Below are positions 34,751-37,587 of a stretch of DNA of 64,000 bases, one piece after another (position 1 is the stretch's first letter; each line of letters begins with the position of its first letter). The stretch is from Candidatus Caldarchaeum sp. (GTDB lineage: Archaea > Thermoproteota > Nitrososphaeria_A > Caldarchaeales > Caldarchaeaceae). The notes beneath the pieces were generated by a model that worked only from the letters and a program-made list of their open reading frames with translations, ran no database searches and had not been told where the DNA came from. Location of the stretch: positions 31,292 through 95,291 of the forward strand of contig JAVQUC010000003.1 of NCBI GenBank assembly GCA_033580815.1. The letters run 5' to 3'. The translations under genes and the position numbers were made by a program.

Positions 34751-35080
34751 GTGGTTTTCTTGAAATGCGAGGTCTGCGGCGAACCAATCCCGTATGTTTT
34801 GCTGCGTCTAGACCTGCCTAGATGTCCGAAAGGCCACGAACTGGGTGTCTGGGTTGCGTGCGGCAATTCCGATGAAAGCCACGTTTACTTGCGCAAGGGC
34901 CTGGCGAGATGCCCTTACTGTGGAAACGATTCGTATCGTTTGATGTCGAAAGGCATGAGAGTTAAGTGTCTTCACACCGGACCCGCCGGCCCATGTGCTT
35001 ATCCTGATTATGTTTGGCTTGAAGACGGCCCGCCATGCCACCTAAACCATTTAACTAAGATAGCGGTAGTCAAACAGTAG
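34751..35080 (+). CDS. Cys-rich zinc-ribbon protein, function unknown
   Basis: 109 aa. CEVCG..CPKGH and CPYCG plus further Cys/His. It sits between ilvE (3 nt intervening) and sua5 (1 nt intervening). Confidence 0.5.
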   Translation: MVFLKCEVCGEPIPYVLLRLDLPRCPKGHELGVWVACGNSDESHVYLRKGLARCPYCGNDSYRLMSKGMRVKCLHTGPAGPCAYPDYVWLEDGPPCHLNHLTKIAVVKQ

Positions 35081-35081
35081 C

Positions 35082-35681
35082 TTGAGGAGGATTGAACAAA
35101 TCGCTGAAGCCGTGAAGGCCGTTTTGAAAGGAGGCGTCGTGGTTTACCCGACTGACACTGTTTACGGAATCGGATGCGACCCATTCGACACTAACGCAGT
35201 TCAGCGCGTAATCGAAATAAAGAAGAGGGAGGCAAAGCCGATGCCGGTGCTCTTGTCCAACATTGACATGCTCTACGCGGTGGCCGAGCCAACATCCGAG
35301 GAAATCGAAGCGGCCTTCAAGCTTTGGCCGGGTCCCGTAACCATCTTGATGAAGAAAAGCCCAAACCTCCCGGGAATAGTCACGGCCGGCGAAGAAACTG
35401 TGGGAGTTAGAATACCAGCACACCTCATACCGTTAACTATCATGGAAAGAACCGGGAAGCCGCTCGTCGGAACGAGCGCCAACATCTCGGGCCAACCATC
35501 CGCAACAGAGCTCGATCAAATAGAGCCGGCTGTCTTGTCTAACGCAGATGTTGCAATCGACGGCGGCCCCACTTTCTTCGGCGCACCATCGACAGTGATA
35601 AGAATCCACGGAGACGGGTTCACGGTCTTGAGAGAGGGCGCGATGAATTCAGATTCAATCGCGAAAAGGCTCAGACTCTAG
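35082..35681 (+). CDS. tsaC: L-threonylcarbamoyladenylate synthase, YrdC-domain-only form (Sua5/TsaC)
   Basis: 199 aa. VVYPTDTVYGIGCDP, KKREAKPMPVLL, GPVTIL, VGVRIP, GTSANISGQP. No C-terminal Sua5 domain. Confidence 0.85.
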   Translation: MRRIEQIAEAVKAVLKGGVVVYPTDTVYGIGCDPFDTNAVQRVIEIKKREAKPMPVLLSNIDMLYAVAEPTSEEIEAAFKLWPGPVTILMKKSPNLPGIVTAGEETVGVRIPAHLIPLTIMERTGKPLVGTSANISGQPSATELDQIEPAVLSNADVAIDGGPTFFGAPSTVIRIHGDGFTVLREGAMNSDSIAKRLRL

Positions 35682-36223
35682 ATCATCGTGGCGCTCATTT
35701 TCTGTATGATAAGTAGCTTGACAGCTTCCTTCTCGGTTTTGGCTTGAACCGCAGCTAACTGCTCCCGTTCGATACCGTAGGCTTCGACAATTTTCTCAAT
35801 ATCTGGATTTTCGTCTAGTCCTCTCTCGACCCCTCCCGCGGCCTCGACGATTTTCCTTGCCATGGCAACCGCATCCTCCGGATTGTCTGCGACCACTACA
35901 TACAAGGCTTCTCTGGAGTTCGGGGGGAGGCCGGCTTTCGCAATCGCATCGTCTATTTGAGTTGTAGCCGCGAGGCGGAGCAAAACTTCATTTGCCAGCG
36001 TCTTGGCTTTCTGCTTCTGACTTCCGAAAGCGAGCATGGCTGTAACGATGGCGGCGTCGAAAACGTCCCAATCCATGACTATTTCGGGTTTAACCAGCTG
36101 GACGTTCTTAAAACCAGCGAAAACCTCCTCCACAAACTCTTTCGCAGTAGTCTTTACTATTTCAACAACACCAGTCGCGAAAAACATCCCCCGAAACTCC
36201 AGCAGCCTCATTTTATCCACCAT
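35678..36223 (-). CDS. cgi121: KEOPS complex subunit Cgi121-like
   Basis: 181 aa. By-eye match to the archaeal Cgi121 pattern (NVQLVKPEIV.., AKTLANEVLLRLAATTQIDDAI, YVVV, IVEAYGI, C-terminal helix). The start lies 11 nt inside the upstream Ubl gene. Confidence 0.6.
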   Translation of the reverse strand: MVDKMRLLEFRGMFFATGVVEIVKTTAKEFVEEVFAGFKNVQLVKPEIVMDWDVFDAAIVTAMLAFGSQKQKAKTLANEVLLRLAATTQIDDAIAKAGLPPNSREALYVVVADNPEDAVAMARKIVEAAGGVERGLDENPDIEKIVEAYGIEREQLAAVQAKTEKEAVKLLIIQKMSATMI

Positions 36224-36485
36224 GAATAGACGGTATTAGGGTTACTGTGTCGCCGTCCTCGATCTCGGTTTCGAGCCAGGAGAGATAACGTACATCAACA
36301 CCGTTGACGAGAATTAAAACCCCTGGCTGCGGCTTCCCCAAGTCGTCCACCACAAACCTTCTGAGGCCTTCATCAAGCCTGTTAAGCAGTTCAGACAACC
36401 TAATCCTACCTTCAACATCCAGTTCGACAAATCTCTTTCCGGCAACAGACCGAAGCGGTCCGAGTAACTCGACTCTCACCAACAC
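36213..36485 (-). CDS. MoaD/ThiS/SAMP-type ubiquitin-like protein with C-terminal diglycine
   Basis: The ORF track starts at GTG 36533. GTG 36485 or 36479 fits the family N-terminus (VRVELLGPLRSVAGKR) and the upstream TATA. The protein ends DGDTVTLIPSIHGG-stop, which is typical of beta-grasp sulfur carriers and modifiers. Confidence 0.7.
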   Translation of the reverse strand: MLVRVELLGPLRSVAGKRFVELDVEGRIRLSELLNRLDEGLRRFVVDDLGKPQPGVLILVNGVDVRYLSWLETEIEDGDTVTLIPSIHGG

Positions 36486-36502
36486 ACAGAAAACGTTTTG
36501 TC

Positions 36503-36543
36503 TAAAAAATATTTGCAAACCGTTCGACGGCACAATTTTATAT
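36503..36543. promoter_or_regulatory. Back-to-back TATA-like boxes of the divergent Ubl and HEAT-protein genes
   Basis: On the minus strand, AAATATTTTTTA (36503-36514) lies 24-30 nt upstream of GTG 36485/36479. On the plus strand, TTTTATAT (36536-36543) lies about 25 nt upstream of ATG 36565. Both genes would be leaderless. Confidence 0.45.
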
Positions 36544-36564
36544 CAGAGTCTGTTTGGTTTATTG

Positions 36565-37068
36565 ATGCAGATTCCCGGGGAAAGGATAAGAATCTTCTTC
36601 GAAATGGAGGGAAAATACAGGGAGAAGGATGCCGAATATTTTCGAAGACTCTTAACCAGCAGCGATTTCGTTGTACGTGCGAGGGCGACTTGCATCCTTG
36701 CGGAGATCGGCGGCCGCGAATACATCCCTGACCTCGCCCGCGTACTACTCGAAGACGATAACCCAATCGTGAGACATGAAGCAGCGTACAGCCTTGGACA
36801 ACTTGGTTACAGAGAGGCGATTCCCTACCTCGTCCAGTCTATGAAAACCGACCCACATCCGATAGTCAGACACGAGTCGGCCATAGCTCTCGGAGTCATA
36901 GGGAAAGAGGAGCCTGTTCCAGAGCTTATCCAAGCACTTGAAGACCCTTCACAGGAGGTGGTCGATTCAGCAATCATTGCGCTCAGTAACATCGAATTCT
37001 GCAAAAGACTGTTCAGCGCATCAACTGACGAAACGTCATTGGAGTTCGCTAGGAAAACGGGTGGATAA
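36565..37068 (+). CDS. HEAT-repeat protein resembling one half of deoxyhypusine hydroxylase (two His-Glu repeats)
   Basis: The ORF track starts at 36304, antisense to the Ubl gene. ATG 36565 gives 167 aa with four HEAT-like repeats. Repeats 2 and 3 are NPIVRHEAAYSLGQLGYREAIPYLV and HPIVRHESAIALGVIGKEEPVPELI. See findings. Confidence 0.65.
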   Translation: MQIPGERIRIFFEMEGKYREKDAEYFRRLLTSSDFVVRARATCILAEIGGREYIPDLARVLLEDDNPIVRHEAAYSLGQLGYREAIPYLVQSMKTDPHPIVRHESAIALGVIGKEEPVPELIQALEDPSQEVVDSAIIALSNIEFCKRLFSASTDETSLEFARKTGG

Positions 37069-37122: not shown

Positions 37123-37587
37123 ATGGTAAATCGTGTTATGAGGGAGTTCAGCTTTATCCTCAACGGTCAACCAGTTAAGATATCTTCGCCTCCCGGCTAT
37201 ACGCTGCTGGAGGTGTTGCGATACGTTCTCCGTTTAACCGGGACGAAAGACGGTTGCAGTAGCGGTGATTGTGGAGCATGCACTGTGCTGCTCGACGGCC
37301 GGCCGGTACATTCATGTCTCACGCTGATTTCGCAAGTTGAGGGCAGAAACGTGGTTACCGTCGAAGGTGTCGACGAAATATTTCCAAGGTCTTACGCTGA
37401 AGAAGGGGCGGTTCAGTGTGGATACTGTATACCCGGATTCGTTGTCACAACAGCGGCCTTCCTAAGGGAGAAGCCGACTCCCACGGTTGATGAAATCAGG
37501 GAAGCGTTGAGGGGGAACCTCTGCCGCTGCACTGGATATGTCAAAATCATCAAAGCTGTTCAGAAATCAGCGGGTGAAATGCGTTGA
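37123..37587 (+). CDS. Xanthine dehydrogenase/CO dehydrogenase family, small [2Fe-2S] subunit
   Basis: 154 aa. Plant-type cluster CSSGDCGACTV and second cluster QCGYCIPGF..CRCTGY. Confidence 0.9.
   Translation: MVNRVMREFSFILNGQPVKISSPPGYTLLEVLRYVLRLTGTKDGCSSGDCGACTVLLDGRPVHSCLTLISQVEGRNVVTVEGVDEIFPRSYAEEGAVQCGYCIPGFVVTTAAFLREKPTPTVDEIREALRGNLCRCTGYVKIIKAVQKSAGEMR

Follow-up and report, generated by a model that had tools for sequence, protein, structure and literature searches.

A split form of the archaeal Ubl-Cgi121 module: a Urm1-like gene tightly joined to a KEOPS gene in Candidatus Caldarchaeum

What is known of genetic ties between ubiquitin-like proteins (Ubls) and the KEOPS complex? 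Makarova and Koonin (Archaea 2010:710303; PMC2948915) described a fusion of a Ubl to the KEOPS subunit Cgi121 in Thaumarchaea and offered two proposals for it—regulation of KEOPS by SAMPylation, or coordinated tRNA modification. Among the full texts searched that name both Cgi121 and Urm1, theirs is the only one to link the two, and we found no experimental follow-up. Their paper does not mention Caldiarchaeum (PMC2948915). Four ThiS/MoaD genes are listed in the genome paper on Caldiarchaeum, which leaves KEOPS unmentioned (PMC3082918), and neither KEOPS nor any of these lineages comes up in a 2025 study that examined archaeal Urm1 in yeast. Here, we analyse a locus in a 64,000-nucleotide stretch of Candidatus Caldarchaeum sp. 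DNA (hereafter the window), which belongs to contig C3 of a 0.95-Mb assembly (76.6% complete) from the Aigarchaeota/Caldarchaeales lineage; the closest proteins in the database bear the name Candidatus Caldarchaeum sp. At this locus, a gene for a Urm1-like Ubl is followed almost immediately, on the same strand, by the gene for Cgi121. Judged by its sequence, the locus is a split variant, in a sister lineage, of the module known in fused form since 2010. The earlier note on this DNA had regarded a Ubl-KEOPS link as undescribed, which the 2010 report contradicts.

Both gene identities proposed in the earlier note—a diglycine Ubl and Cgi121—hold up in Pfam and NCBIfam searches. The Ubl, whose gene ends ..IPSIHGG-stop, matches ThiS (PF02597; 42.8 bits, cut-off 22.5) and Urm1 (PF09138; 33.7 bits, cut-off 21.8). 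Its longest open reading frame (36533..36213) has the C-terminus ..TLIPSIHGG; homologues, together with a 98%-identical database protein of 90 aa (P0121), set the start at GTG 36485, which is directly followed by two alternative starts, TTG 36482 and GTG 36479. The downstream product exceeds the cut-offs of PF08617 (55.1 bits versus 25) and of NF011465, 'KEOPS complex subunit Cgi121' (65.8 bits versus 40). At the level of fold, the C-terminal domain of a fused Nitrosopumilus orthologue, on whose model rather than on the window's own protein this match rests, resembles yeast, human and archaeal Cgi121 structures (TM 0.66-0.74, E 1e-8 to 1e-6).

How closely are the two genes joined? The junction reads CAT GGT GGA TAA A ATG, with the conserved ATG of Cgi121 1 nt past the Ubl stop. 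The earlier note had instead placed the Cgi121 start at ATG 36223, in an 11-nt overlap with the Ubl. This upstream ATG (36223-36221) exists within CAT-GGT-GGA, where it would indeed generate such an overlap, and the tightness of the junction stands; the functional start, however, is probably ATG 36211. The upstream ATG arises incidentally from the way His is encoded, and relatives with CAC have no such ATG, while the second start (ATG AGG/CGT, encoding M-R) is common to all members of the genus and lies here at 36211-36209. Because the M-R start is conserved in the genus and the upstream ATG varies with the His codon, we take ATG 36211 as the likelier of the two. With either start, the junction is extremely tight. 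The two frames differ and TAA 36215-36213 lies between them, so that two polypeptides rather than one are encoded. The GGTGGA of the Gly-Gly codons resembles a Shine-Dalgarno sequence and might serve in ribosome binding. In 43 of 53 relatives, Gly-Gly is written GGT GGN or GGA GGN, so that a Shine-Dalgarno-like GGNGG stands a few bases ahead of the start codon of Cgi121. Since any gene ending in Gly-Gly carries this motif, it may have come about incidentally and not through selection as a signal.

Is the pairing peculiar to this genome? The class is represented in the genome collection by 76 genomes of a single order. For 60 relatives (4 families, 14 genera), 2.5 kb on each side of Cgi121 were retrieved and the translated frames searched with the window's proteins. 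In 53 of the 60, the same Ubl immediately precedes Cgi121 and shares its strand, as it does in 6/6 further class members (59/66 together), so the adjacency is not a private feature of the genome in which the earlier note had spotted it. The exceptions comprise every one of the seven members of genus g8, which keeps an orthologous Ubl (100-104 bits with the family profile described below), 38-113 kb from Cgi121 or on another contig; by eye, its neighbours there look like DnaG-type and MoxR-type genes. Of the 53 adjoining pairs, 49 have a Cgi121 frame that opens ahead of the Ubl stop or at most 6 nt past it. In this sample, the pairing is strongly conserved and not a product of chance.

The 53 adjoining pairs also vary in how the Ubl ends. 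In 29 of them, it stops exactly at Gly-Gly, and in the other 24 it carries 1-12 extra residues that are unrelated between lineages (for example WDACSSR, CN, AF and KTEPFGPPVHPG). Ubl and Cgi121 share one frame with a single stop codon between them in 10/53 genomes (TGA in five, TAG in two, TAA in three; listed in Table 1). At one of these loci (L051, genome G045), there is no ATG, GTG or TTG between the TGA and the conserved DKW motif of Cgi121; read-through and an unusual start are possibilities here.

Outside the class, a sample of 40 Cgi121 loci from the phylum revealed complete fusions. Eight loci were sampled from family f5. Seven of them carry a single gene whose 257-283-aa product has the Ubl at its N-terminal end and Cgi121 at its C-terminal end; at the eighth, the two halves are in frame and split by one stop. 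The fusion junction reads ..IIPVIHGG-S/A, with IPVIHGG invariant, and is followed after 2-4 residues by Cgi121. Nitrosopumilus sp. K4, a member of this family, has a 257-aa fusion annotated 'KEOPS complex subunit Cgi121 / MoaD/ThiS family protein', and the Nitrosopumilus-type fusion accounts for 1736 clusters in a large protein collection, under names such as 'KEOPS complex subunit Cgi121' or 'MoaD/ThiS family protein'. Two further Ubl-Cgi121 fusions, P0159 (277 aa) and P0199 (279 aa), turned up when representative proteins were searched with the window's Ubl. Their Ubl domains are ~40% identical to it and are similar to those of families f4 and f3. Fused and split forms are therefore scattered among these lineages, and P..HGG does not vary, whether the Ubl is split, tailed or fused. 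In 11 other families of the phylum sample, no Ubl was found within 2.4 kb of Cgi121.

A phosphoribosyltransferase-like gene (PF00156) enters the picture in some lineages. In family f11 (L109-L116), the order is Ubl (..LPSVHGG-stop), phosphoribosyltransferase-like gene, Cgi121; in family f28 (L136) and in protein P0202, the Ubl is fused, after HGG, to the phosphoribosyltransferase itself. The PF00156 homologue of the window's own genome is unlinked (C8:29009-29524).

What Ubls do the ammonia oxidisers have besides the fusion? All five complete genomes examined with the family profile (G113, G127, G076, G155, G134) contain only two beta-grasp Ubl domains each. The first is fused to Cgi121 and the second, in a 440-458-aa frame, to the single E1; in Nitrosopumilus sp. 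K4 (G113), the sole ThiF-type E1 domain follows directly downstream of this second Ubl domain. A free-standing Ubl gene was found in none of the five. Because there is no such gene, any free Ubl in these organisms must come from a fusion.

To which kind of beta-grasp protein does the window's Ubl belong? As a simpler alternative, the earlier note had suggested MoaD, in view of a molybdoenzyme operon that does, as stated there, start at 37123. Three ThiS-family genes are present in the genome: one on contig C1, one on contig C5 and the Cgi121-linked one. The C1 paralogue adjoins MoaE (C1:87280-87621) and scores 62.7 bits with moaD_arch against a cut-off of 49.5, and is the real MoaD. This protein (locus L001 1462-1791, minus strand) has 12 residues beyond Gly-Gly (..PPIAGGYLKLGSRTPLCP), as the Caldiarchaeum genome paper also describes for CSUB_C1603 (PMC3082918), and would need C-terminal processing before acting. 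The C5 paralogue (locus L003 1498-1800, minus strand) ends ..VVEVVGGG, reaches 40.3 bits with moaD_arch (below cut-off) and has as neighbours the CoxM/CoxS-like subunits of a second xanthine-dehydrogenase-family enzyme. Of the three, the Cgi121-linked paralogue alone matches Urm1 models. Its NCBIfam scores are all below cut-off; Urm1_like ranks best (47.9, cut-off 70), followed by SAMP1 (41.7) and moaD_arch (40.9, cut-off 49.5).

To place the family more broadly, 25 diverse Ubl homologues—split, fused and phosphoribosyltransferase-linked—were aligned, and a profile built from the alignment was run against the PDB. Only P83, H86, G87 and G88 are invariant in the 25. The top match is Ta0895 (7.5e-13), annotated solely as a hypothetical protein, followed by Sulfolobus solfataricus Urm1 (4wwm; 8.8e-12, C-terminus IPINHGG), yeast Urm1 (1.5e-11, C-terminus STLHGG) and then mouse, trypanosome and plant Urm1. 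SAMP1 (1e-5), SAMP2 (0.02), TtuB (0.5) and Escherichia coli MoaD (0.6) match more weakly, which puts Urm1-type proteins ahead of these four by 5-10 orders of magnitude. In a fold search with the Ubl half of a fused homologue, Trypanosoma brucei Urm1 came first among the beta-grasp matches, with other Urm1, SAMP and MoaD structures close behind. The profile scores, on which this classification rests, suggest that the Ubl groups with Urm1. An assignment as MoaD was rejected in view of the moaD_arch score below cut-off, the separate MoaD-MoaE pair on C1 and the Urm1-type profile matches.

Does the lineage have the enzymes that a Urm1-type protein would work with? The search for partners succeeded in part: moaE was located in the genome itself, on C1, and an E1 and an NcsA/TtuA-like enzyme in other genomes of the genus. 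A MoeB-type E1 is present in three near-complete genomes of the genus (299-300 bits); that of Candidatus C. subterraneum (G009) lies at 1098520-1099221. G009 and a second genome (G008) encode one NcsA/TtuA-like PP-loop enzyme each (NcsA 164 bits, TtuA 142 bits, both below the equivalog cut-offs; 1154440-1155021 in G009), in which the match is accompanied by a TtuA LIM domain. JAMM proteases are also present in the genus. Two candidates from the window's own assembly were rejected as E1 of the Ubl. Its only strong ThiF match, on contig C4, is the E1 of a eukaryote-type ubiquitin operon (JAMM, E2, E1, RING), and a weaker second ThiF match is an FAD oxidoreductase. That operon, outside the window at C4:31644-36495, is the one known from Candidatus Caldiarchaeum subterraneum.

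The module has neighbours on both sides, two of which the earlier note did not mention (Table 1). Downstream, a gene for a Sua5/TsaC-type L-threonylcarbamoyladenylate synthase is convergent with Cgi121, and the 3' ends of the two genes overlap by 4 nt. Sua5/TsaC provides t6A synthesis with its first intermediate. Sua5 and Cgi121 are convergent in 28/60 relatives, and they are so too in several ammonia oxidisers and in further families of the phylum without a Ubl at the locus; because of this last group, we take the Cgi121-Sua5 pairing to be wider than the Ubl link. A 109-aa cysteine-rich, zinc-ribbon-like open reading frame precedes Sua5 (34751-35681 for the two) and recurs beside Sua5 in 13/17 sampled loci of family f1. 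Upstream of the Ubl, a short divergent spacer contains two A+T-rich elements that would be consistent with promoters and leaderless mRNAs. The second unmentioned neighbour, a HEAT-repeat gene, sits between the Ubl and the molybdoenzyme operon; among the 60 relatives' loci, it adjoins the module only in some of genus g1.

Table 1. Coordinates of the module, its neighbours and related features mentioned in the text. Positions refer to the window unless a contig is given.
Feature	Location	Strand	Remarks
Sua5/TsaC-type L-threonylcarbamoyladenylate synthase	35082..35681	+	YrdC domain only, 199 aa; PF01300 186 bits, TIGR00057 179 bits (cut-off 123)
KEOPS subunit Cgi121	35678..36211	-	177 aa from ATG 36211; 181 aa if from ATG 36223; stop 35680-35678
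Urm1-like ubiquitin-fold protein (Ubl)	36213..36485	-	90 aa from GTG 36485; ends ..IPSIHGG; stop TAA 36215-36213
His-Gly-Gly codons CAT GGT GGA	36216..36224	-	upstream ATG 36223-36221 inside; GGTGGA 5 nt before conserved Cgi121 ATG
Divergent intergenic region	36486..36564		79 bp; two A+T-rich TATA-like elements (by eye)
TATA-like element	36504-36514	read on -	~24 nt upstream of Ubl start
TATA-like element TTTTATAT	36536-36543		~25 nt upstream of HEAT gene ATG
HEAT-repeat protein	36565..37068	+	PF13646 102.6 bits; divergent neighbour, not part of Ubl-Cgi121 module
Loci with a single in-frame stop between Ubl and Cgi121	L039, L047, L051, L053, L056, L057, L059, L063, L065, L066		families f2 and f4
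JAMM/Rpn11-like	C4 31644-32354	-	JAB match
UBC-like E2, HPNF motif	C4 32610-33134	+	by eye
E1	C4 33098-34318	+	ThiF match
Membrane protein, C-terminal RING-like zinc finger	C4 35806-36495	+	by eye

What, then, might this module do? The gene identities, the tight junction, the class-wide conservation, the orthology with the fused form, the likeness to Urm1 and the distinction from MoaD are directly supported. Building on them, we favour with moderate confidence the reading that the Ubl is a Gly-Gly-activated carrier of the Urm1/SAMP2 type that is co-produced with Cgi121, and that the locus represents the split Ubl-Cgi121 module of an Aigarchaeota-Thaumarchaeota clade. Our inferences beyond those observations concern co-translation, activation, the transfer of sulfur, processing and why Cgi121 is the linked partner, and the steps could run as follows. 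A single transcript from the divergent spacer would carry both genes. Ribosomes ending at HGG-TAA would restart at the ATG 1 nt further on, with GGTGGA acting as a Shine-Dalgarno-like site, and coupled restart of this kind would yield the Ubl and the tRNA-recruiting KEOPS subunit at 1:1. The free C-terminal Gly-Gly of the Ubl would be activated by a MoeB/UbaA-type E1, and the Ubl would most likely serve as thiocarboxylate sulfur carrier for a tRNA 2-thiolase of the NcsA/TtuA type, possibly also as a protein modifier. In relatives with fused or tailed forms, these would be cut after Gly-Gly, most likely by a JAMM protease. Coupling to Cgi121, together with the convergent Sua5/TsaC gene, would connect the Ubl pathway with the making of t6A37 on the same tRNAs; that U34 thiolation and t6A37 are coordinated there is no more than a reasonable guess. 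The chemistry of the Gly-Gly C-terminus appears to be selected, even where it is internal, because P..HGG is invariant, the tails in 24/53 are variable and the Ubl is kept unlinked in genus g8.

Several points weigh against this proposal of an activated carrier. The Urm1_like score of the Ubl lies well under the curated cut-off, and neither a MoeB-type E1 nor NcsA was found in the own assembly, which is 76.6% complete. Some archaeal NcsA/TtuA enzymes can use sulfide directly, and a Ubl is hence not obligatory for thiolation. The proposal also offers no reason why the partner should be Cgi121 rather than the thiolase. The structure models do not help either. As a proxy for a Ubl:Cgi121 complex, natural fusions were modelled with AlphaFold2: the Nitrosopumilus fusion gave two well-folded domains (pLDDT 87.6), which match Cgi121 and Urm1/MoaD-type structures, at a pTM of 0.66 and with a floppy junction (pLDDT 67), and the model of fusion P0159 was poor (pLDDT 64, pTM 0.39) and uninformative. 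A fixed Ubl-Cgi121 interface is not supported by these models.

This lack of confident interdomain packing also counts against another explanation, by which the Ubl would be a structural or accessory KEOPS subunit, a 'Rosetta-stone' partner that binds Cgi121 non-covalently, with neither C-terminal activation nor sulfur chemistry, and whose Gly-Gly would serve binding or folding. Repeated fusion and fission—fused genes in the ammonia oxidisers, P0159 and P0199, split genes elsewhere and a single in-frame stop in 10 genomes—would fit a physical association, coupling would again provide 1:1 synthesis, and the Gly-Gly that is internal in fusions could not be activated without cleavage. Ubiquitin-like domains that are never activated usually lose their Gly-Gly, however, and here P..HGG is invariant in every form. 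Genus g8, with its Ubl far from Cgi121, also speaks against a dedicated subunit, and we consider this explanation unlikely.

Slightly less likely still, in our view, is that the Ubl acts mainly as a protein modifier (urmylation or SAMPylation) with KEOPS as its target or regulator, such that conjugation to Cgi121, Bud32 or Kae1 tunes t6A. Urm1 and SAMP2 have dual roles as carrier and modifier. The Urm1-like profile with its HGG end and the E1 and JAMM genes in the genus would agree with such a role, but linkage to a target instead of to conjugation machinery would be unusual, the module comes without an E2/E3-type gene, and conjugates are only predicted. Modification of KEOPS is one of the two ideas that Makarova and Koonin put forward (PMC2948915).

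Might the arrangement simply have been inherited, as an operon of two small translation-related genes that are co-expressed with no functional link? That genus g8 separates both genes and keeps both, and that Cgi121 lacks a neighbouring Ubl in 11 other families of the phylum, could be read this way. Yet the pair is kept across the class and its sister lineage, with several separate fusions and a junction of 0-20 nt, which exceeds what operon drift would leave, and we regard mere inheritance as improbable. That the Ubl is a MoaD for the neighbouring xanthine-dehydrogenase-family operon, as the operon's proximity and the 40.9 bits with moaD_arch might suggest, is hardly credible given the shortfall from the cut-off of 49.5, the better-scoring paralogue beside MoaE (62.7), the opposite-strand HEAT gene that intervenes and lies beside the Ubl only in genus g1, the fact that the Ubl tracks Cgi121 and not molybdenum genes in 59/66 relatives, and the place of E. 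coli MoaD among the weakest PDB matches.

If the Ubl is an activated Urm1-type carrier, as we favour, one may speculate further. Urm1 of Aigarchaeota and Thaumarchaeota could be made in ubiquitin style, as a bicistron or polyprotein with Cgi121, be released by JAMM and remain associated with Cgi121, which would bring U34 2-thiolation and t6A37 into one assembly. Here, fused and tailed forms would be cleaved by a JAMM protease just behind the invariant HGG, which in ammonia oxidisers would free the only sulfur carrier or modifier, and the freed Urm1 would stay with tRNA-holding Cgi121, so that both modifications are placed on the same tRNA. This extended scenario is doubtful as it stands. The split form of Aigarchaeota adds a natural series—from a free Gly-Gly through short tails of variable sequence and a lone in-frame stop to the full fusion—that makes a vague Ubl-KEOPS association directly testable. 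A physical coupling of the Urm1 pathway and t6A, if true, would show how two anticodon-loop modifications are coordinated and provide an archaeal precedent for ubiquitin-style precursor genes; if there is only co-expression, this is an ordinary conserved operon.

How does the locus compare with known systems? With the eukaryotic Urm1-Uba4-Ncs6/Ncs2 system and with Sulfolobus Urm1 (PDB 2pko, 2ax5, 1xo3, 4wwm), the window's Ubl shares the beta-grasp fold, the C-terminal ..HGG and its closest profile similarity, and the genus likewise has an E1 and, as in the eukaryotic system, an Ncs6/NcsA-like PP-loop enzyme. Unlike these Urm1 proteins, it misses the Urm1_like cut-off (47.9 versus 70), and we know of no eukaryotic or Sulfolobus Urm1 gene that is linked to Cgi121. 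The SAMP2/UbaA/NcsA system of Haloferax volcanii offers the parallel of an archaeal Ubl that is both sulfur carrier and modifier with one E1, a feature of H. volcanii, but SAMP2 is matched weakly by the family profile (E 0.02) and, to our knowledge, haloarchaeal SAMP genes are not linked to KEOPS. PMC4443979 describes cleavage of the H. volcanii SAMP1-MoaE linkage by HvJAMM1, a precedent for the release, by a JAMM protease, of a Ubl in covalent linkage with its partner protein.

In its layout, the fused thaumarchaeal form recalls, by analogy, the eukaryotic genes UBA52 and RPS27A. These encode ubiquitin-ribosomal protein fusions, in which a Gly-Gly ubiquitin is N-terminal and made in fixed stoichiometry with a protein of the translation apparatus. 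Unlike them, the window's Ubl needs no cleavage, and cleavage of the archaeal fusions is a prediction. The nearest relative of the locus is the thaumarchaeal Ubl-Cgi121 fusion itself. From this it differs in lineage, which here is Aigarchaeota (Caldarchaeum), and in that the two proteins are separate, with Gly-Gly free without proteolysis and Cgi121 restarting 1 nt after TAA. Otherwise the two correspond: the same modules stand in the same order, the Urm1-like one first and Cgi121 second; the Ubls are orthologous, with the family profile (A1) scoring 73-81 bits on the fused domains and P..HGG invariant; and Sua5/TsaC is often convergent downstream.

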